Source: Patescibacteria group bacterium (GTDB lineage: Bacteria > Patescibacteriota > Minisyncoccia > Phycocordibacterales > 21-14-all-36-13). Taken from it: a stretch of DNA of 51,831 nucleotides. The stretch covers positions 1-51,831 of the forward strand of contig JAHIHZ010000011.1 in assembly GCA_018899555.1 (NCBI GenBank), given 5' to 3'. The number at the start of each line of letters is the position of its first letter. Positions within the stretch are counted from its first letter, which is position 1. Below are positions 6,626-48,844 of the stretch, piece after piece. The notes below the pieces were generated by a model that was not told where the DNA came from, did not search any database, and saw only the letters and a list, made by a program, of their open reading frames with translations. The position numbers were made by a program, and so were the translations under genes.

Positions 6626-7583
6626 CGCATTACACAATGATTTCAATATATGTCAATAGTGTATGCACACCACTGGGCAAGCAGTTTTCCTGCACCCTAG
6701 CGGTTTCCATAGGTTTTCGCTTTTTTCCCTCTCTTCCTAATCTCATCACGAAGTCTAACAATTTTATTAAAACCCCTGTCTGTAAGATGTTCTTTTTTAG
6801 ACATCATTAAAACAATTTTTTTAAAAATTTTATAAACTTCCGCTTTTTTGGCTTGTAATGGATTTTTATCAAGAAAAGGGAAAAGTTTCGTTGTTAAATC
6901 TTTTAAATTATTTATCTTATATTTTGAATGAGGAAACCATCCATATCTATCATAAGACAGATCATAAATTCTTCCACACCCAATTGTTATAAGAATTCTC
7001 TCTAAAATTTTTTGATCATCGGCACGAAGTTCTATTTCAAATTCCGGTCGAATTTCAAATCTTCTTTTAAGAGTTTTATGTTTCCCTATGCTTATAGAAA
7101 AAGATCCCTCTCCGTCTATAAAACCAGAAACATAATTTGGATTTAATTTTTTCCTATGAATTTGTTCCTTCCCAATTGGTTTTTTTAACTTCTTGGTACT
7201 ATGAACTCTGCTGACTTCTTGCATAACATTTAAAAAAGATTGCTCTTTTATATACCTCGATGTTATCACACACCGAGGATTATGCAAGATCTCCTGTGGT
7301 AACTATATAGACCATTTGTTTTCATCTCGATATCACTACACGCAATATGTTTACTTTGACACAGTAGGCTTCTCCATATACTCGCAGGATGACCTACATA
7401 TTGCGCCACAGACTGATATTCAAGCTAAAAACTGCTAATTTCTCCCTTCACTGAATTTCCTCACGGAAAACAGCTGAGATTTCGCTTCAAAACACTGTGA
7501 CTTATTTTGGCCTGATTTCCAAAAACTTTTTTTAAAAAAGAAGTTGGGCACAGACTGGCTTATATAATCGCACAGCGACCCGA
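6626..7583 (-). mobile_element. 958-nt intron-like insertion in 16S between E. coli C1395 and A1396, carrying a LAGLIDADG gene; ribozyme class not assignable by eye
   Basis: Exon sequence GCCTTGTAC stops at 7584 and resumes as ATACCGCCCGTCAACTC at 6625. Joining the two restores the universal CCUUGUACA(C/U)ACCGCCCGUC. The insertion ends in G. The group I core motif seen in the other introns is absent. Confidence 0.7.
6697..7287 (-). CDS. LAGLIDADG homing endonuclease (single-motif type)
   Basis: Contains YVSGFIDGEGSFSISI. About 190 aa, located inside the rRNA insertion. Confidence 0.8.
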   Translation of the reverse strand: MHNPRCVITSRYIKEQSFLNVMQEVSRVHSTKKLKKPIGKEQIHRKKLNPNYVSGFIDGEGSFSISIGKHKTLKRRFEIRPEFEIELRADDQKILERILITIGCGRIYDLSYDRYGWFPHSKYKINNLKDLTTKLFPFLDKNPLQAKKAEVYKIFKKIVLMMSKKEHLTDRGFNKIVRLRDEIRKRGKKAKTYGNR

Positions 7584-7615
7584 GTACAAGGCTCGAGAAC
7601 GTATTCACCGCAGTA

Positions 7616-7651
<36 letters not shown>

Positions 7652-7804
7652 GGGTCGAGTTGCAGACCCCAATCCGAACTAGGACCGATTTTTAGGATTG
7701 GCTCAGGATTGCTCCGTCGCGACCTATTGTATCGGCCATTGTATTACGTGTGTAGCCCAGGGCATCAAAGGGACATGCTGACCTGGCGTCATCCTCTCCT
7801 TCCT

Positions 7805-7885
7805 CCCCTCCCTAAAAGAATTTTCAAACAAGAAGTTCGGCTTCTCAAGAGGAAGCCAAACTTCGAAAATTCACTTAGGGAGGGG
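7805..7885 (-). other. expanded 16S helix (about E. coli 1160-1175 region)
   Basis: CCCCTCCCTAAG ... CTTAGGGAGGGG encloses a second hairpin (GTTTGGCTTCCTCTTGAGAAGCCGAAC). E. coli has only about 15 nt at this position. Confidence 0.6.
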
Positions 7886-8235
7886 CAGTCTCGTCTGAAA
7901 TTTATAACAGACAACAAGGGTTGCGTTCGTTTCCCTACTTAAAGGAACAGCTCAAGCCACGAACTGACGACGGCCATGCATCACCTGCCTATCCGTTAAG
8001 ATTTTCTGTTTCTAGAAAAACATAAGATAGGTTTCAAGCCCTGGTGAGGTTCTTCGGTTAGTATCGAATTAAACCACATAATCCACCGCTTGTGCGAGCC
8101 CCCGTCTATTTCTTTGAGTTTTAACCTTGCGATCGTACTACCCAGGCGGTTCTCTTAATGCGTTAGCTTCGCCTCTCAGAGGGTCGATACTCCGAAAAGC
8201 TAGAGAACAACGTTTACGGCGTGGACTACAGGGGT

Positions 8236-8795
8236 CACTTTTGTTACGAAGTAACAAAAAAATTAAAAATGTAAAAATCAAAATGAAAAATTACAATTTA
8301 AAATTCAAAAGTTACCGGATACAACATTTCTGTGTATCTCTCTATGTCGCCATAGAGGTCGGACTATATCTTCACCCGGCACTTTCTGAAAGTGCTGGGG
8401 TTTGGCATGTAGTCTCTGAGGAGCCTTGCGTGCTATAAAATGCGGGCAACAGCACCTTTAACACACAAGTTTCCTGCTGATTGTCTGCATCGGTTTGAGA
8501 TTGTTACTATAATATATCAATAGTACTCGAACATTCGCAGAGTTTCCAGCATATAGCCAAATTACAATCTACTGTTGCCAGTAGAAGAGACACTGTTCGC
8601 ATTCTCTCACCTACTTGAGTGAGCATTTTCTTTTTTAAAACATATGCAGGAGATGAAATAAAAATCAAGGAGTCGCATAGGAAAATGAAACTGTTTGAGT
8701 CCTGCAAGGCAGGATGAGTTTTTCATTTTCCGTCATAAGACGATTATGATTTTTTTCATCGAAACATCGTTTTGAAAAAGAAGATGCGAACGTTT
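8236..8795 (-). mobile_element. group I intron in the 16S 790 loop (between U793 and A794), no ORF
   Basis: Splicing restores GGAUUAGAU|ACCCCUGUAGUCC. Core elements CCTCAGAGACTAC (P7 5' side) and GAAGATATAGTCCGAC (J8/7-P7', compare Tetrahymena AAGAUAUAGUCGGACC) are present at 8345-8425. The last intron nt is G and the last 5' exon nt is U. Confidence 0.8.
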
Positions 8796-9111
8796 ATCTA
8801 ATCCCTTTCGCTCCCCACGCTTTCGTGTTTCAGTGTCAGGAAATGTGCTAGTTTATTGCCTTCGCTTTTGGTGTTCCCCATAATATCAACGGATTTCACC
8901 CCTACACTATGAGTTCCATAAACCCCTCACACCCTCTAGTTGTACCGTTTCTTTTGCAGTTCTTCGGTTGAGCCGAATGTTTTAACAAAAGACTAATACA
9001 ACCACCTACACACCCTTTACGCCCAATGATTCCGGATAACGCTTGGGGCCTCTGTATTACCGCTCCTGCTGGCACAGAGTTAGGAGCCCCTTATTCATGA
9101 TCTGATGTCAA

Positions 9112-9230
9112 TCGCTCCGCGATTCCCACGCGGATAAACGCAGACAACAATGCGGATAGACGCGGATAAAAAATATCTGCGAAAATCTGCAAAAATATCT
9201 GCGAAAATCTGCGAAGAAATCGCAAAGCGA
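9112..9230 (-). repeat. V3-region expansion of 16S built from ATCTGCG/ATCCGCG-type repeats
   Basis: About 120 nt lie between ...GATTGAAGAAG and TTGACATCAGATCATG... The segment consists of tcgcagattttcgcagatatttttgcagattttcgcagat... and tatccgcgtctatccgc... Confidence 0.65.
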
Positions 9231-9466
9231 CTTCTTCAATCATAAAAGATCTTTACGTCCCTAAGGACTTCATCAATCACGCGATGTCGCTCCGTCAGGC
9301 TTTCGCCCATTGCGGAAGATTCTCGACTGCTGCCACCCGTAGGTGTATGGACCGTGTCGCAGTTCCACCGGTGGAGGTCAGGCTCTCACCTCTCCTAGAC
9401 GTCATAGCCTTGGTAAGCTTTTACCTTACCAACTAGCTGATATCCCGCAGGCCGATCCCAAAGCGC

Positions 9467-9518
9467 CCAGCACATATTTTGATTTTTGAACAATTTCAAA
9501 AATCAAAATATGTGCTGG
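9467..9518 (-). repeat. 52-nt near-perfect hairpin inside 16S V2
   Basis: CCAGCACATATTTTGATTTTTGAA-loop-TTCAAAAATCAAAATATGTGCTGG. Confidence 0.7.
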
Positions 9519-9532
9519 ACTTTACTCAACAC

Positions 9533-9825
9533 TTTTTTTATTTTACAAGAGATTCTTTAATTCGCTTTTTTATATATGTTCGAGCATTGCCATAATGTTT
9601 TAATCCTTTCTCCCGAGCTCTTGCATCTTCTTCGGATCTATATGATTCGCAATATACCAAAATCCACGGTATTCCAAATTTAGTTGATTGATTTATTCCA
9701 TCATTATGATGTTTAAGTCTCTCGGATAAATTTGTTGTAAATCCGAAATATAAATCTTTCGTTTTTTTGCTTTGAATCACATACACCGTATAAAGTTTCA
9801 TGAAGCTAATTATAAAATAAAAAAA
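9533..9825 (-). mobile_element. 293-nt insertion in a 16S V2 hairpin loop consisting almost only of a GIY-YIG ORF
   Basis: Bounded by an 8-bp inverted repeat, CTCAACAC (9525-9532) and GTGTTGAG (9826-9833). No group I core is visible. Confidence 0.65.
9538..9801 (-). CDS. GIY-YIG nuclease domain protein (87 aa)
   Basis: The N-terminus YTVYVIQSKKTKDLYFGFTTNLSERLKHHN is the GIY...YIG/R/E pattern of GIY-YIG domains. Confidence 0.8.
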   Translation of the reverse strand: MKLYTVYVIQSKKTKDLYFGFTTNLSERLKHHNDGINQSTKFGIPWILVYCESYRSEEDARAREKGLKHYGNARTYIKKRIKESLVK

Positions 9826-9925
9826 GTGTTGAGACTATCAGGTATTATCCCGCCTTTCGACGGATTATCCCTGACTTTGGGGGTCGTTCCTACGTGTTAC
9901 TACCTCGTTTGCCATGTTTTCTCGT

Positions 9926-10064
9926 CTACGGCGAGAACGCTGATGTTCGCAGATGGGGCTCGCTTGCGCTCGCCTTCGCAGATGTTCGCTGATATTTAAA
10001 AATTATATCTGCGTTAATCTGCGTTTTTTATCTGCGTTAATCTGCGGTCTTGTCGTAGACAAGA
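9926..10064 (-). repeat. 139-nt module expanding 16S helix 6 (V1); near-identical copy inside 23S (49169-49366)
   Basis: CTACGGCGAGAACGCTGATGTTCGCAGATGGGGCTCGCTTGCGCTCGCCTTCGCAGATGTTCGCTGATATTTAAAAATTATATCTGCGTTAATCTGCG... ...GGTCTTGTCGTAGACAAGA is shared with the 23S copy. Confidence 0.85.
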
Positions 10065-10137
10065 TACATTCGACTTGCATGCCTAATCCACATCGCCAGC
10101 GTTCATCCTGAGCTAGAATCAAACTCTAACTTAAAAA

Positions 10138-39649: not shown

Positions 39650-41089
39650 ATGACCGCGAATAAAGAAAAAATTAAGGAATATATCAACGACCAAATTGCC
39701 CAAGCCGATTTCCGCGGACGGGCGTATGTTTTTGACGCGCAAAACAAAAAACGCCCCAACAGGAATATTTTTATCAGAATCCAGTCGCATTTGGACCAAT
39801 TTCTTGCCGGAAACAAATCTTATCGCTGGGTAACTCTTACGGGTTTGCGCGGAGCCGGCAAAACGACGATTATGTATCAGCTGTATCATGCCAGAAAAAA
39901 TATTGACGGATATTTTTTAATTCTTTCGGTTGATGAAATCACACAAACTCTCGGAAGCAACATCAATGAAGTTGTCGGTATTTTTGAAGAAATTATCGGA
40001 AGGCCTATTACAAATTTAGACAAGCCGTTATTTTTATTTTTGGATGAGGTGCAATACGATGAAAAATGGGGCGCAACTCTTAAAACTGTTTATGACCGAA
40101 GCCATAATGTTTTTATGTTTTCAACCGGTTCGGCGGCGGCGCTTCTGAATAGCAATCCCGACATTGCTCGGCGCGCCATTTACGAAAAAATTTATCCGCT
40201 TTCGTTCACGGAATTTATTAAAATTAAAAAAGATAAATATGAAATTAAGGGGTTGTCGCAAGAATTAAGAGAAATAATTTTTGGCGGGCGAAATGCCCAA
40301 GAGGTGTTCAACGCGTTGAAAAAACAAGAACAGAAAATAAGCGGATATTATCATGGAATCAGCCGTTTGGATTTTGAAAATTATCTCTTTTACGGGTCGT
40401 TGCCGTTTATGATTGCGCTGGAAAATGAGGCGTTGGTTTATGACCAGATAAATAAATCTCTGGAACGGGTAATCAATAAAGATATTCCACAAATGCGCGG
40501 ATTATCATCGGAAATTATCGGAAGAATTTCTGCGATTTTATACGCCGTGGCGGATATGGATGTTTTGAATTTCACGACGCTGGCGGAAAAATTCGGCATA
40601 TCCCGTCCCAAGATAGCGGAAATTTTTTCAGCGCTGGAACAAGCGGAAGTTTTGCATCGCGTATATCCGCACGGGTCCCATTTCAAGCAGGTGACGCAAA
40701 AGCCGTCAAAATACCTCTTTTCATCGCCGGTGTTTCGCGCGATGTATTATAAAACCATTGGAAATATTATTACAGAACAGAACGCGCGCGGAAAACTTTT
40801 GGAAGATTTGGTTGGTATGTATCTTTATCGTTTATGCGACAAAAAGCCGTCTTTTTCTTTAACCTATGATAGCGCGAAAGGAGGAGCTGATTTTATATTG
40901 AGCGCAGGAGAAAATAAAATCGTAATTGAAGTTGGAGTGAACAAAAAAGAATATAAGCAAGTAGTGCAAACGGTGGAGAAAATAAAGGCAAATTGCGGTA
41001 TTATTATTTCAGAAGGAATTGACGCTTTAGAATATAATCAGGAAGCAAACGCATTGAAGATGCCGTTAAAATTTTTTCTTTTAATGTGA
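39650..41089 (+). CDS. AAA-type ATPase (AAA_14 + DUF4143-like architecture)
   Basis: Walker A GLRGAGKTT and Walker B LFLDEVQY. The C-terminal part resembles the DUF4143 / restriction-endonuclease-like tail of this widespread family. Confidence 0.7.
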   Translation: MTANKEKIKEYINDQIAQADFRGRAYVFDAQNKKRPNRNIFIRIQSHLDQFLAGNKSYRWVTLTGLRGAGKTTIMYQLYHARKNIDGYFLILSVDEITQTLGSNINEVVGIFEEIIGRPITNLDKPLFLFLDEVQYDEKWGATLKTVYDRSHNVFMFSTGSAAALLNSNPDIARRAIYEKIYPLSFTEFIKIKKDKYEIKGLSQELREIIFGGRNAQEVFNALKKQEQKISGYYHGISRLDFENYLFYGSLPFMIALENEALVYDQINKSLERVINKDIPQMRGLSSEIIGRISAILYAVADMDVLNFTTLAEKFGISRPKIAEIFSALEQAEVLHRVYPHGSHFKQVTQKPSKYLFSSPVFRAMYYKTIGNIITEQNARGKLLEDLVGMYLYRLCDKKPSFSLTYDSAKGGADFILSAGENKIVIEVGVNKKEYKQVVQTVEKIKANCGIIISEGIDALEYNQEANALKMPLKFFLLM

Positions 41090-41164
41090 TTTATGCTCTA
41101 CGACGAATTTAATTCATATAAAAACTTTACCGGAATAAAATTTATGAGAAAACAATCAAAAAGT

Positions 41165-41420
41165 GAAAGTTGTGAGGCAAGACCTCACAACTTTCCAAAT
41201 GAAAAAACTATTCCCTTATTTAGCTAAATAAGGGAATAGTTTTTATAAGCGATATTTTAAGATATGAGATTAATCGAGAGGAGAATTTCCAGCGGTTCAA
41301 CCGCTGGAAACTACTGAAATTATGGATAAATTTATTTCAAAAAAAGTTCGGATTTCATCTAAAAAAATTCTCGCAAAGATGAATGAAAGAATAACTTAAA
41401 AAATCAGTATTAAAAAAGGC
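41165..41420 (+). repeat. island repeat A, copy 2
   Basis: Collinear with 36211-36496, minus about 30 nt. Confidence 0.9.
41322..41399 (+). CDS. 25-codon ORF MDKFISKKVRISSKKILAKMNERIT (paralog of 36398-36475); coding status unproven
   Basis: Same length and frame as copy 1, with 5 amino-acid differences. Confidence 0.3.
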   Translation: MDKFISKKVRISSKKILAKMNERIT

Positions 41421-41488
41421 TTTTAATGAGGAGTTGTAGGTCAATATCGTTAAAACCAATGTTTTTTCTTACATTTTAACGGTATTGA

Positions 41489-41516
41489 TTGACATTATCG
41501 TTAAGTTGAGTATAAT
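41489..41516 (+). promoter_or_regulatory. consensus sigma70 promoter TTGACA-N16-TATAAT implying a leaderless fic mRNA
   Basis: TTGACA at 41489-41494 and TATAAT at 41511-41516. The ATG at 41523 is 7 nt after the -10 box. Confidence 0.5.
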
Positions 41517-41522
41517 AGAGAT

Positions 41523-42410
41523 ATGGCGAACACATTAAAAGTATACAAAAAAATACAAAGTTTACGGGAAAGATACTACAAGGCCATCGTGGGTAAAGAG
41601 TCTCTTTTGAAAATACTTGCAGAAGCAGAAGTTTCCGATCAGGTTTATAACTCAAACGCTATTGAAAACAGCACTCTTACACTTGAAGAAACTGATAAAA
41701 TTCTTCTTCAAATAGAGCTTGATAGATATATAACAGAGCGAGAAATTTTTGAAGCCAAAAATCTTGCTCGAGTTGTGTTATATATAGAAACCAAATCAAA
41801 AGAAAGTGAATTAAATTTTGATATTATTTTGTCTTTACATAAAATGCTTATTTCTAATATTCGTGATGATATAGCTGGTAGATTTAGAAAAGAAGATGAA
41901 TGGGTACGAGTTGGTGATTATGTTGCACCAAATTCATTAGAAGTTACCGATCGTTTACAAAAAGTTCTGACAGAATATAATTCAAATGGTTCAGAGTCTA
42001 TAATAAAAAGAATTGCTAAATTTCATTTAGGTTTTGAGTATATACACCCATTTTGTGACGGGAATGGTCGTATTGGACGCGTCTTGAACAATTATCTTTT
42101 AATGCGGGGCGGATATGTGTCCATAAACATTAAATTTATTGATAGAGCTTTGTATTATGATGCCTTTAGAGAATTTCAGACGAAGGGTAGTACAAAAATT
42201 ATGGAAACTATTGTTGCAAAAGCACTTACAAACAGTTATCACAGACACCTTGCGTATTTAGAAAATAAAACAGTAATGAATTTATCTGATTATGCCAAAG
42301 AGCATAGTTTTTCTCATGCAAATTTAATAAATAAAGCAAAGCGTCAAACCATTGAAGCTTTTTTGGAAAAAGGTGTGTGGAAAATTGGCGTTGATAGTGA
42401 GAAAAAATAA
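41523..42410 (+). CDS. fic: Fic-domain protein (class II, N-terminal inhibitory helix)
   Basis: Active-site motif HPFCDGNGRIGR. The N-terminal SNAIEN fits the (S/T)xxxE(G/N) autoinhibition motif. Confidence 0.88.
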   Translation: MANTLKVYKKIQSLRERYYKAIVGKESLLKILAEAEVSDQVYNSNAIENSTLTLEETDKILLQIELDRYITEREIFEAKNLARVVLYIETKSKESELNFDIILSLHKMLISNIRDDIAGRFRKEDEWVRVGDYVAPNSLEVTDRLQKVLTEYNSNGSESIIKRIAKFHLGFEYIHPFCDGNGRIGRVLNNYLLMRGGYVSINIKFIDRALYYDAFREFQTKGSTKIMETIVAKALTNSYHRHLAYLENKTVMNLSDYAKEHSFSHANLINKAKRQTIEAFLEKGVWKIGVDSEKK

Positions 42411-42493
42411 TATGAATAAATCGGAAACACGAGCAGGATATAATTTCCAGCGGTTGAACCGCTGAAAATCAACCACTGAAAATTACTGAAATT

Positions 42494-43321
42494 ATGAATA
42501 TCTTTCTTCCAAAAAAAGTTTTAGTTGCAGGATTTGGAATTTTGATATTGTTTATTGGGGTTCTGATTGGAATGCAATTTAGAAACACTGCTGGGCAATC
42601 GCCAGTATTGTCAAAGTCAAAAATTACCAACGAAAAAACAAATGAGGCAAATGTTCAAAATGTATTAGAACCTCAAAATAAATTACAAACTGAAACATAC
42701 AAAGTCACCCGTGTTGTTGACGGTGATACCATTGATATAGAAATAGGCGATAAGATAGAGCGAGTACGATATATCGGCATTGATACTCCAGAAACAGTTG
42801 ACCCAAGAAAGCCAGTGCAGTGTTTTGGCATTGAAGCTTCAAAGAAAAATAAGGAATTAGTTGAAGGAAAAATGGTGCGATTGGAAAAAGACATCACTGA
42901 CCGTGATAAATATAACCGACTTTTGAGATATGTTTTTGTTGATGATGTTTTTATAAATCTTGAATTGGTTAAACAAGGTTTTGCTTATTCGTATTCATAT
43001 CCGCCAGATATAAAACATCAAGATGAATTTCTCAAAGCTCAACAAGAGGCCGAAAAGACAAAGCAAGGGTTATGGAGCGCCTGTCCAACAGAACAAGAAC
43101 AAACTATTTCAACACCAACACCAACTCCAACTATAGAAAATAATAATGGGGAATGTTTAATTAAGGGTAATATAAGTTCCACAGGTGAAAAGATTTATCA
43201 TATGATAGGATGTGGTTCATATAGAAAAACTCAAATTGACGAGAGCCGAGGAGAAAAATGGTTCTGTACTGAAGCGGAAGCTCAATCTGCCGGTTGGCGC
43301 AAGGCGTTGAATTGCAAATGA
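42494..43321 (+). CDS. membrane-anchored secreted thermonuclease (SNase fold) with Cys-containing C-terminal extension
   Basis: N-terminal TM VLVAGFGILILFIGVLIG. SNase core VTRVVDGDTI...RYIGIDTPE...NRLLRYV...NLELVKQGFA. The C-terminal 80 aa contain 5 Cys. Confidence 0.85.
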   Translation: MNIFLPKKVLVAGFGILILFIGVLIGMQFRNTAGQSPVLSKSKITNEKTNEANVQNVLEPQNKLQTETYKVTRVVDGDTIDIEIGDKIERVRYIGIDTPETVDPRKPVQCFGIEASKKNKELVEGKMVRLEKDITDRDKYNRLLRYVFVDDVFINLELVKQGFAYSYSYPPDIKHQDEFLKAQQEAEKTKQGLWSACPTEQEQTISTPTPTPTIENNNGECLIKGNISSTGEKIYHMIGCGSYRKTQIDESRGEKWFCTEAEAQSAGWRKALNCK

Positions 43322-43924
43322 GACACGGGACAAATACCCTGTTTCTGTGTCTCATTTGTCTCTTTGTCTCATTTACTAAAACACTACTCTAACCTACATA
43401 CATAAATTTGCAACACCAAAATATGTAAAATACCTTTATGACACTTGGAGTTGTTTCCCAGCGGTTTAACCGCTGTAAATGTTTAAATAAAAGAAAAAAC
43501 CCGCATATGGTGCGAGTTGAACTTCCCCCACATTTGTGGGGTGTGTTTAGTTATAAATATAAATTAAGTAAAAAGCAAAAGTATTTTTCACCTAGCAGAA
43601 TAAAAATCCATAAGAAATTTACCCTGTTAAATTCCGCCGAAGGCGGACCTGCATAGCAGGATTTAATAGGGTTGTAGTTTAATAGCTCCCAACAGGAAGT
43701 ATTACTTGATTAAATTAGTACTTCTCGGCTGAACGCATTACTGCGCTTACACCTAAAGCCTATCAACCTGATCATCTCTCAGGAATCTTAAATGATTTCT
43801 AATCTTGGAGTTGGTTTCCCGCTTAGATGCTTTCAGCGGTTATCCATTCCCGACATAGCTACCCTGCGATGCTCTTGGCAGAACAGCAGGTACACCAGAG
43901 GTCAGTTCACTTCGGTCCTCTCGT

Positions 43925-44752
43925 CACATATTTCTTAATCTTTTTAATTGATTTAGAATTTTACCCCCTATTTCTAGGAGTGTAGACTATATCTTCATCC
44001 GTCAGCTTCTGGCTGATTAGGATGTTGGCGTATTACAAGTATAAATCTGTCCCAATATATGTCGGAACTTTTCAATGTTATACAAGTCTGTTTGTTCAAA
44101 TTAAATTGAACAAAACAAGTCGTTACGGGGTCAAATCTAATAATTTTAGCAATTCATTTCTGTCTCTTTTTTTCTTAGTGACATAATTTTCTTTTTGTAT
44201 TTTAAGAATTAAATCTACAAGCATTATAAGTTCTTTCTTTTTCAAAAGATTTATTGATTTTTGTAAAATTTTACAAGAATTATATAATGCCTTAGCTTGT
44301 ATTTTTTTGAATTTTATATAAGGAATAAGATTTTTCAAAATTTTTTCTATTTTTTTAAATCCATTTATTCTCAATTCAGTCATCCCGTCTTTTCTTTTTG
44401 AAATATAACCTATATTTAATTCCTTTCTTATCCAATACAAAGGTTCATCATGGCGAGTGTCTTGATAAAAACACATCGTCGCCATAAAACGAATTCCTCT
44501 TTTGTTGTCGCTTCTTTTCTTTATCTGGAGCATTAAACTTCCATCTCCATCAAGAAAACCCGCGATATATGCTAAATTTATTTTTGATCGACTTCCCACG
44601 GTATTGTCTTAAAAATTATCTGGTCCTCAAGTAATTTTATCATAATTAACGGACCGCGTTAATTATTTTTCCACTGCCAGATATTTTATGAAGATTTCAC
44701 CGTTATTAGCCAAATTGTCATCTCATATTACTATGAGAAGTAGCAATTATTT
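43925..44752 (-). mobile_element. group I intron in the sarcin-ricin loop (between about U2656 and A2657) with LAGLIDADG gene
   Basis: Splicing restores CUAGU|ACGAGAGGACC. P1 is UAGU(A) with UGCUA. The intron ends in G. Core element GAAGATATAGTCTAC at about 43985-44000. Confidence 0.8.
44123..44599 (-). CDS. LAGLIDADG homing endonuclease (single motif, 158 aa)
   Basis: LAYIAGFLDGDGSLML. Its size is typical of homodimeric enzymes of this family. Confidence 0.85.
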   Translation of the reverse strand: MGSRSKINLAYIAGFLDGDGSLMLQIKKRSDNKRGIRFMATMCFYQDTRHDEPLYWIRKELNIGYISKRKDGMTELRINGFKKIEKILKNLIPYIKFKKIQAKALYNSCKILQKSINLLKKKELIMLVDLILKIQKENYVTKKKRDRNELLKLLDLTP

Positions 44753-44815
44753 ACTAGAAGCAAATCTCCTCAAAAATCGACGCCTGCAACAGATAGGAGA
44801 CCAACCTGTCTCACG

Positions 44816-45341: not shown

Positions 45342-45350
45342 ACGGTCTGA

Positions 45351-48082: not shown

Positions 48083-48096
48083 ACCTTAGGACGATT

Positions 48097-48844
48097 CATA
48101 AACGTTATCACTGCTCTCAAGCAGCTCCTCATGGTCGCCCATGAGATCGGACTATCTCTTCCAAATCCGATTTCTCGGATTAGGTCTAGCGTATAGTCTC
48201 TGAGGATTTTCTGATAAAGAGTTTCTATAATCTTCTATATTATATTTTCTCTTTCTTCCTCTCCCTTCATTCAATTTTTCTCTTAATTTTACTATTTTAG
48301 ACATCCCTTCGTTGTTTAAATGTTCTTTTTTATAAACTATTTCTGTAATTTGTGAAAAAATTGAGAAATTTTTTTTTTACTTGAAGAAAGAAAAGAATAT
48401 TTTTTGAAGAAAGGTATTATCCTCTCTTGAATTGCGTTTGGGTTTGAAATTACATAGTACCAAACTCCATCTTTTCGTTCTTGCAATCTGCCACATTTTA
48501 AATATTGTTTCATTAAAGCAAGAATCGTTTTGTCGCGTTGAGCGACATTTAAAGTCAACACTATTTGCCAACCGAGAGAATGATCTTCGCGTTTTCTTAA
48601 AGAAACATTGAAGCTTCCCTCTCCGTCAACAAACCCTGAAATATAGTTTCCTATATTTTGGGGTATTAATTTAAGCCACGAATAATCTTTATTCATAAGT
48701 TTTATTCGTTACTTTGTCAGAATCTTTCCTGCGGATTGTCTGCACCGTTGCATTGTTACTATCCTTTCGACAAGAATGAGTAGCAAACGGATACACCAGA
48801 GTTTCCCGCATATAGCTAGATTTTTTAACTACAATCGTCACCTT
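48097..48844 (-). mobile_element. group I intron at L1917 (inside helix 69 loop) with disrupted LAGLIDADG gene
   Basis: P1 is AACUAU (exon) with GUAGUU (intron). Splicing restores GGCGAUAACUAU|AAUCGUCC, a helix 69 of the same length as in E. coli with compensatory stem changes. Core at 48145-48215. Confidence 0.85.
48152..48696 (-). pseudogene. LAGLIDADG homing endonuclease gene interrupted by a frameshift in an A10 run
   Basis: The 119-aa ORF (48337-48696) contains YISGFVDGEGSFNV. After the T10 run at 48369-48378 the homologous C-terminus (..KKEHLNNEGMSKIVKLREKLNEGRGRKRKY..) continues in another frame. Compare the 16S enzyme ..KKEHLTDRGFNKIVRLRDEIRKRGKK... Confidence 0.7.

Follow-up and report, generated by a model that had tools for sequence, protein, structure and literature searches.

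The 23S rRNA gene in the window, the whole stretch of 51,831 nucleotides analysed here, is interrupted within the sarcin-ricin loop (SRL) by an insertion that bears the sequence characteristics of a group I intron. With a probability of about 0.88 we regard it as a mobile IA-type group I intron that is located after U2656 in 23S genes of the Candidate Phyla Radiation (CPR; Patescibacteria/Parcubacteria), that splices, and that homes by means of an I-CreI-like enzyme. The SRL belongs to the most conserved RNA sequences, and the ribosome is non-functional without it. No ribosome can function unless an intron at this place is precisely removed and the exons are rejoined. The abundance of the element in CPR means that even the SRL tolerates a selfish element, which is already part of a survey published in 2024.

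Position and boundaries of the insertion

The insertion comprises 828 nt (44752..43925, minus strand) and lies between U2656 and A2657 in E. coli 23S rRNA numbering, three nucleotides ahead of the ricin target A2660. The position was derived from a BLAST comparison of the E. coli 23S gene (L001:545-3448) with the minus strand of the window, complemented by sequence reading. BLAST aligns E. coli 2594-2618 to window 44815-44790 and E. coli 2657-2884 to window 43924-43714 (E 1e-18), the remainder of the 5' exon up to U2656 (44753) was read from the sequence, and the landmarks A2654, A2660, and G2661 were verified in the E. coli reference. The 5' exon segment (E. coli 2594-2656, 44753..44815, minus strand) ends with ...CUUCUAGU; its terminus at 44753 reads ...GAUUUGCUUCUAGU and, with more upstream sequence, ...GAGAUUUGCUUCUAGU. 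The 3' exon (E. coli 2657-2884, 43714..43924, minus strand) begins with ACGAGAGGACC, has A2657 at 43924 and A2660 at 43921, and its opening at 43924 is ACGAGAGGACCGAAGUG. The intron starts with an A at 44752 and ends with the omega-G at 43925. Rejoining the exons gives CUAGU|ACGAGAGGACC, by which the sarcin-ricin loop is restored, and the ligated-exon junction predicted from the sequence is CUAGU-ACGAGAGG or, in its longer form, CUAGUACGAGAGG. The original prediction had described an 828-nt intron at U2656|A2657 inside the SRL, with this exon join and three nucleotides from the ricin/sarcin target, and all of this is borne out. The Rfam matches identify the gene as 23S rRNA of the bacterial type. 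It occupies the minus strand between the end of the window and about 43714, and the 16S gene lies 33 kb apart from it. The genes neighbouring the 23S gene are ordinary bacterial genes.

A scan of one genome per species revealed 28 loci with a related endonuclease, all of them in CPR MAGs. Both flanks are readable in 26 of these, and there an insertion of 724-841 nt is found at the same place with the pattern ...YUAGU|A......G|ACGAGAGGACC. One of the other two loci, L017, has the same 3' junction on a contig that stops before the 5' splice site, and the other, L015, stops before the 3' exon. At least 32 further copies were found on metagenome contigs by a scan with the 5' intron pattern, in which about two thirds of the 120 matches listed are chance matches so that an abundance figure is not derivable from it. 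The boundaries are the same in all 58 copies (26 from genomes and 32 from metagenomes). A chance alignment is excluded because these 58 independent loci share the exact insertion point, and all 58 start with A and end with G. An intron-less relative at the SRL, L029, contains the contiguous sequence CUCUAGUACGAGAGGACC, the site also being given as GGTCGTCTCTAGTACGAGAGGACCGAGACG. A junction one base later would be possible given that the intron and the 3' exon both start with A. The reading U2656|A2657 was chosen because only there does a U precede the intron and a G end it, as required for group I splicing.

Distribution and prior description

The endonuclease has 2875 related proteins at E<=1e-3. 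The best 120 of these 2875 have 63-100% identity over 76-100% of the query, nearly all are about 159 aa long, and the named sources among them are Zambryski-, Nomura-, Harrison-, and Vogelbacteria, Minisyncoccia, and similar groups. The nearest genome loci belong to two MAGs, one from the 'Patescibacteria group' with an endonuclease of 87% identity and one from the 'Parcubacteria group' with 85%, and in both the flanking exon is identical to that of the window over the about 75 nt examined. As all related genome loci are from CPR assemblies, the window represents a piece of a bacterial CPR genome and not organellar DNA.

Insertions in the 23S genes of CPR have been surveyed by Tsurumaki et al. 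(2024, J Bacteriol; PMC11270868), who describe 14 frequent insertion sites in 348 CPR 23S genes. LAGLIDADG_1 proteins are mainly found at positions 1917, 1931, 1952, 2593, 2604, and 2657, corresponding to 23IS6-8 and 23IS12-14, and the group I introns at 23IS9, 23IS10, 23IS11, 23IS13, and 23IS14 had been unreported from other bacteria (PMC11270868). The site 23IS14 is 23S position 2657, mostly contains group I introns with LAGLIDADG_1, and is widespread across the CPR phyla (same source). This site is U2656|A2657, and the number differs by naming convention only. The insertion in the window lies at about E. coli 2657, contains a LAGLIDADG_1 ORF, and has its relatives in CPR. Compared with the 23IS14 class, it has the same gene and position, is likewise group I-like with a single-domain LAGLIDADG_1 protein, and nothing essential differs. 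The window element is thus an ordinary member of a published, abundant CPR class, whose kind is already described. The original prediction correctly supposed that classical lists of LSU intron sites in bacteria do not include this position: a compilation from 2007 contains only L1917, L1931, L1951, and L2593 (PMC1995217). For archaea, group I introns are reported at 1923, 1931, 2500, and 2593 (PMC6125680). The novelty that it implied does not hold, because 23IS14 has been published as a frequent CPR site (PMC11270868) and because at least 58 copies were recovered at the same site. The window adds one example but no new kind, and only the loop-exon structural detail described below may be new.

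The combination of 'L2656' with 'intron' gave no match in the literature searched, and nothing relevant was found there that links the sarcin-ricin loop with group I introns. The main text of PMC11270868 does not contain the word 'sarcin', and no secondary structure, target-symmetry analysis, or endonuclease assay for the 2657 site was seen in its available parts.

Ribozyme fold and group I membership

Judged by its sequence, the insertion belongs to the group I introns: a U·G pair marks the 5' splice site, the last nucleotide is a G, and both the P3-P8 core with the P3/P7 pseudoknot and the J8/7-P7 motif are present. The fold was evaluated on a MAFFT alignment (A1) of 26 copies from which the ORF interior had been removed. 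In this alignment, the corrected model of 54 pairs has standard pairs in 97.1% of 1403 cells compared to 34-44% in a control with the partners slid by one to three columns. Compensatory changes are present in 24 of the 54 pairs (155 cells), which is reached by none of 500 shuffles. P8 is under-counted and P5a/P5b are outside the formal count, as MAFFT partly misaligned P8 and P5a. P4, P7, and much of P6 are invariant, and their pairing is derived from homology to the Rfam alignment and not from covariation.

All elements of the ribozyme are on the minus strand. The internal guide UUGCUA (44741..44746) pairs with the exon UAGU and the intron AA to form P1 (UAGU|AA/UUGCUA) with a 4-nt loop. The U2656·G pair is present in 26/26 sequences, and P1 contains only four exon base pairs. 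The tetraloop that closes P1 leaves no segment of the guide from which a classical P10 could be formed. The P2 hairpin UCUCAUA-GUAA-UAUGAGA (44721..44738) shows compensatory changes in all seven of its pairs. It is followed by the 5' strand of P3 (UUGGC), J3/4 (UAAUAA), and the 5' strand of P4 (CGGUG), which together cover 44698..44713; the partners are at 44025-44029 for P3 (UUGGC/GCCAA) and at 44599-44603 for P4 (CGGUG/UACCG). P5 bears an extension, and the P5b hairpin (44642..44666) has the loop CGGUCC at 44656..44651 that is kept in 52 of the 58 homologues. The ORF forms the loop of the long P6/P6a stem. The 5' part of this stem, consisting of the 5' strands GGG[AA]GUC of P6 and AUCAAAAA of P6a (44581..44597), coincides with codons 2-7 of the ORF, and its 3' part, consisting of the 3' strands UAUUAGAU of P6a and GACCCC of P6 (44127..44142), with the last ORF codons. 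P6 covaries in four sequences, in which a change from GUC to GUU is paired with a change from GAC to AAC, and P6a of the window copy has two mismatches in eight pairs. The 5' strand of P7 (GACU, 44118..44121) lies within the invariant CCCCGUAACGACU and has the partner AGUC at 43988..43985; this pairing was taken from the Rfam alignment of an ORF-less homologue and is present in 26/26 sequences. Between P7 and P3' (44035..44116) the sequence folds into the hairpins P7.1 (44116..44090) and P7.2 (44089..44035), which are variable in sequence but hairpin-forming in all aligned homologues. The 3' strand of P3 (GCCAA) and the P8 hairpin (43997..44029) precede J8/7 and the 3' strand of P7, which together form the invariant GAAGAUAUAGUC (43985..43996). 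The 3' end of the intron consists of the P9 hairpin CUCCUA-GAAA-UAGGGG and a 3' extension hairpin (43926..43980 together), the extension being found only in the window, L002, and L003.

Because P7.1 and P7.2 lie between P7 and P3', which is a hallmark of subgroup IA, the intron was assigned to the IA-type. It is IA3-like and, judged by P7.1/P7.2 and likeness, closest to the L2593/IA3 kind.

A first model with P6 as AAGUCG/CGACUU and P7 as AGACU further downstream was dropped in accordance with the Rfam alignment of the ORF-less copy. It is also ruled out by the covariation of GUC->GUU with GAC->AAC, which gives GGG[AA]GUC/GACCCC for P6 and GACU within AACGACU for P7.

The Rfam group I model RF00028 does not match the window copy even at E<=1, and neither does it match the ORF-containing copy of L005. 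We attribute this to the 477-nt ORF inside P6. The ORF-less homologue L058 (292 nt) is recognised with 50.5 bits against a threshold of 50 (E 4.6e-12), and the ORF-less copy of L139 obtains 36.4 bits.

The predicted endonuclease and its DNA target

The intron contains, as originally predicted, a 158-aa LAGLIDADG gene (44123..44599, minus strand), which is located in the P6a loop and whose GUG start overlaps the P4/P6 junction. The protein matches Pfam LAGLIDADG_1 (PF00961) with 46.5 bits against a cut-off of 23.1 and has a single LAGLIDADG motif. By sequence, the closest solved relatives are I-MsoI, I-CvuI, and I-CreI, which act as homodimers and belong to L2593 introns of chloroplasts. In 21 homologues, for which the mean column identity is 73%, the motif GFLDGDGS is invariant, as are Q46, R49, and K98, which align with the active-site Gln, Arg, and Lys of I-CreI. 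The AlphaFold model (pLDDT 89.6) has an alpha-beta-beta-alpha-beta-beta-alpha core, for which Foldseek gives TM values of 0.79-0.82 to I-CvuI, I-CreI, and I-MsoI. The 158-aa protein is therefore predicted to be a single-motif LAGLIDADG endonuclease of the I-CreI family.

The target sequence in the window, TCTAGT|ACGAGA, is self-complementary at 10 of 12 positions and is centred on GTAC. The positions ±1, ±2, and ±4 are complementary in 58/58 loci and ±5 is complementary in 79%; of the first 8 such positions, 6 are complementary in the window. This symmetry fits a homodimeric enzyme, and a dimer is predicted. The original prediction was right in expecting a recognition site that spans the SRL, and the predicted target is near-palindromic around the insertion point. 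In having its palindrome centre at the insertion point, it differs from that of I-CreI, whose site centre is 3 bp off its insertion point. By analogy to the I-CreI enzymes, it is inferred that the protein cleaves intron-less 23S genes. The family to which the protein belongs has many, strongly conserved members and should recognise universally conserved DNA centred on GTAC. The only CPR endonuclease known to have been assayed biochemically is I-ShaI from site 23IS7 (PMC11270868). It is similar to the L2656 enzyme in being a LAGLIDADG_1 single-domain protein from a group I-like insertion in a CPR 23S gene, acts as homodimer, and cuts its own insertion site, but it comes from a different site and lineage (same source).

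Both strands of P6/P6a are contributed by the endonuclease gene, the first about seven codons pairing with the last about six (window 44581-44599 and 44127-44142; A1 columns 265-302), and compensatory changes in this pairing are found in L008, L013, L025, and L016-L022. Because the GUG start overlaps the P4/P6 junction, translation of the endonuclease and folding of the ribozyme should be mutually exclusive.

A possible helix between the L5b loop and the 3' exon

The L5b loop CGGUCC is complementary to G2663-G2668 of the 3' exon (GGACCG, +7 to +12, 43913..43918, minus strand), which is the 3' strand of the sarcin-ricin stem; the rest of the P5b hairpin is variable. A fully complementary 5-mer is present in 50 of the 56 scored copies, and to exons with GGACC the loops GGUCC (35 copies), GGUUC (6), and GGUCU (5) correspond. 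Exons with U2667 have an A opposite in 4/4 copies (AGUCC in three, AGUUC in one) compared to 1/52 for exons with C2667 (Fisher 1.4e-5). These four copies span at least three separate lineages as judged by endonuclease similarity and, where the flanks are long enough, by exon similarity. The sixth pair, which was not used in choosing the loop, is formed in 50 of 52 copies, with A-U in the U2668 copies L026 and L079 and U-A in the A2668 copy L130; in L091, the third copy with U2668, the U·U stays unpaired. Immediately outside the helix, pairing is no more frequent than expected by chance (18/52 and 16/52). In a formal count 98.1% of the cells are paired with seven double-change cells, to which 0 of 500 shuffles come up, with the provisos that the loop was chosen by complementarity for five of the six positions, that the exon is nearly invariant, and that the counts ignore phylogeny. 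The raw count of introns with a 5-mer complementary to GGACC is uninformative, as it ranks at about 131 of 1024 and A/U- and G/U-rich 5-mers score equal or higher.

A pairing of the CGGUCC loop with the intron's own GAGGACC was considered and dropped. The GAGGACC is the 3' strand of P5a and covaries with ..UGGUC(U), it is absent in L002, L033, L058, L098, L100, and L109, and in L121 it stays GGACC despite the changed loop.

From these sequence patterns we slightly favour the view that the L5b loop pairs with G2663-G2668 in the 3' exon over 6 bp, in place of a classical P10. Such a helix may have a role in exon alignment and thus stand in for P10. If true, recognition of the exon in splicing, and perhaps in reverse splicing, would depend to a large part on this distal helix, given that P1 contacts the exon with only 4 bp. 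The covariation between loop and exon thus offers a simple explanation, open to testing, of exon recognition by a ribozyme with such a short P1 contact. The classical P10 and the EBS-IBS pairings of group II introns are similar in that an intron-exon pairing holds the exon for ligation, but this is an analogy only: the proposed partner in the L2656 intron is a peripheral P5b loop and not the guide, and it would bind +7 to +12 and not the first exon bases. No description of a pairing between a peripheral loop and an exon was found in the literature searched.

Members of a CPR L2593 subfamily (L093, L121, L074, L025, L009, L021, L098, and L029) have L5 loops in which 8-11 nt can pair with the 3' exon of the respective intron, at +6 to +16. 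In L093 and L121 the loop AUCAACCUGUC matches the exon GACAGGUUGGU over 11 bp, five other L2593 introns have matches of 8-9 bp, and the L2593 intron of L029 has the exon AGUUUGGU and the loop ACCAAACU. Another subfamily, consisting of short ORF-less L2593 introns, is without an exon-matching L5 loop.

Predicted splicing and homing, and probable origin of the element

At the 5' splice site, the exon UAGU and two intron bases pair with the guide UUGCUA in a short P1 with the U·G pair. The RNA would then remove itself by two transesterifications initiated by guanosine, by which the exons would be religated. Religation is required because an unligated break between 2656 and 2657 would destroy the loop needed by the elongation factors. 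By analogy to I-CreI, the 158-aa enzyme would cut intron-less 23S genes at TCTAGT|ACGAGA as a homodimer, and repair of the cut would copy the intron into the 23S gene, resulting in homing.

Copies without an ORF are found in L058 (292 nt), L139 (331 nt), and L033 (379 nt). The endonuclease gene has been cleanly lost in L058 (4913-5204) and in L139 (1086-1416), where only the P6a hairpin from the former ORF ends is left. L055 (6971-7588) contains the same intron with a decayed endonuclease gene. Full, decayed, and ORF-less forms thus coexist, as is expected if gain and loss of a homing element alternate repeatedly.

It could be that the ribozyme is not self-sufficient and that the LAGLIDADG protein doubles as a maturase, as is known for LAGLIDADG proteins of some fungal mitochondrial introns. 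This would be compatible with a splicing and homing intron, and it would be in line with the very short P1 of four exon base pairs, the unusual conservation of the protein (73% mean column identity over diverse CPR hosts), and the ORF ends being built into P6/P6a. However, the residues catalysing DNA cleavage are all retained, and a cis-encoded maturase is not obligatory because at this site introns with intact cores have been maintained without an ORF in L058, L139, and L033 and with a decayed one in L055, although a copy encoded elsewhere in these genomes might act in trans. Overall, we consider a maturase function as unlikely. Even less likely is that the window copy is dead and does not splice, either as part of an rRNA pseudogene or as an inactive intron. 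The failure of the Rfam model, the two mismatches in P6a, and the crowding of the 23S gene with at least seven introns might be read in this way, but all core helices of the window copy are intact, the exons retain the universally conserved sequence, the ORF has full length and aligns end-to-end with its homologues, and a single rRNA copy is typical for CPR genomes (PMC11270868). Finally, ribosomes are expected to become inactive if the rRNA is broken within a few nucleotides of the position cut by alpha-sarcin, which counts against an insertion that is excised without ligation. Such intervening sequences, which are removed by RNase III and leave a fragmented 23S rRNA, occur in bacterial 23S genes including those of CPR, but their known sites are elsewhere in the gene (23IS2 and 23IS4; PMC11270868). 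This explanation is almost negligible in view of the terminal G, the U·G pair with which the intron begins to be spliced, and a group I core supported by covariation.

The L2656 element resembles the L2593 introns (IA3), which occur in chloroplasts of green algae, in cyanobacteria, in DPANN archaea, and in CPR. Both share a short P2, P7.1/P7.2, and the core motifs, and the single-motif LAGLIDADG enzymes I-CreI, I-MsoI, and I-CvuI of the L2593 introns resemble the L2656 protein in their homodimer-type architecture (TM 0.79-0.82). In contrast, the L2656 site is 63 nt further downstream in helix 95 and not in the peptidyl-transferase centre, and the guide sequence and the exon-matching loop differ. 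In L029 the SRL is uninterrupted, and an endonuclease with 49% identity is encoded in an L2593 intron. The layout of this intron is as in the L2656 intron, with the ORF in P6, the motifs CCCCGUAACGACU and GAAGAUAUAGUC, and P7.1/P7.2. The SRL element is, on this sequence comparison, best read as the sister of the CPR L2593 element with a switched target. Thus, the element would most likely have arisen from a related CPR L2593 intron together with its endonuclease by a target-site switch, which agrees with the ectopic transposition suggested in PMC11270868.

Other insertions and neighbouring genes in the window

The 23S gene in the window contains at least seven group I introns (L1917, L1931, L2262, L2500, L2584, L2593, and L2656), and its 5' half has several non-intron insertions. 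Some of the introns are so close to each other that tiny exons remain between them. The 9-nt mini-exon UCAGACCGU (45342-45350, minus strand) corresponds to E. coli 2585-2593 including U2585 of the peptidyl-transferase centre, and is flanked by the group I introns L2584 (46209..45351), which contains a gene for a 247-aa LAGLIDADG_2 protein, and L2593 (45341..44816). The 9-mer UCAGACCGU is contiguous in intron-less CPR 23S genes, with three exact matches and close variants in 18 loci. A 14-nt mini-exon, AAUCGUCCUAAGGU (48083-48096, minus strand; E. coli 1918-1931), is located between the introns at about L1917 and at L1931, the former of which contains a 119-aa LAGLIDADG_1 ORF (48696..48337).

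The 16S gene (10134..7537, minus strand) is located 33 kb from the 23S gene and has a group I intron at 8340-8618. Past the 3' end of the Rfam 16S match there are a match to group II D1-D4 (7165-7254) and a 196-aa LAGLIDADG_1 ORF (6697..7287). This pair resembles the LAGLIDADG-bearing group II-like insertions that have been reported at position 1400 of CPR 16S genes. A 5S rRNA was not detected within the window. Adjoining the 3' end of the 23S gene, a run of genes on the plus strand (36566-43321) resembles a defence or toxin island. It encodes a HATPase_c protein with DUF4325, an Eco57I/TaqI_C-type methylase with an N-terminal SNase fragment, an AAA_14/DUF4143 ATPase, a Fic/DOC protein, and a membrane-anchored homologue of staphylococcal nuclease.
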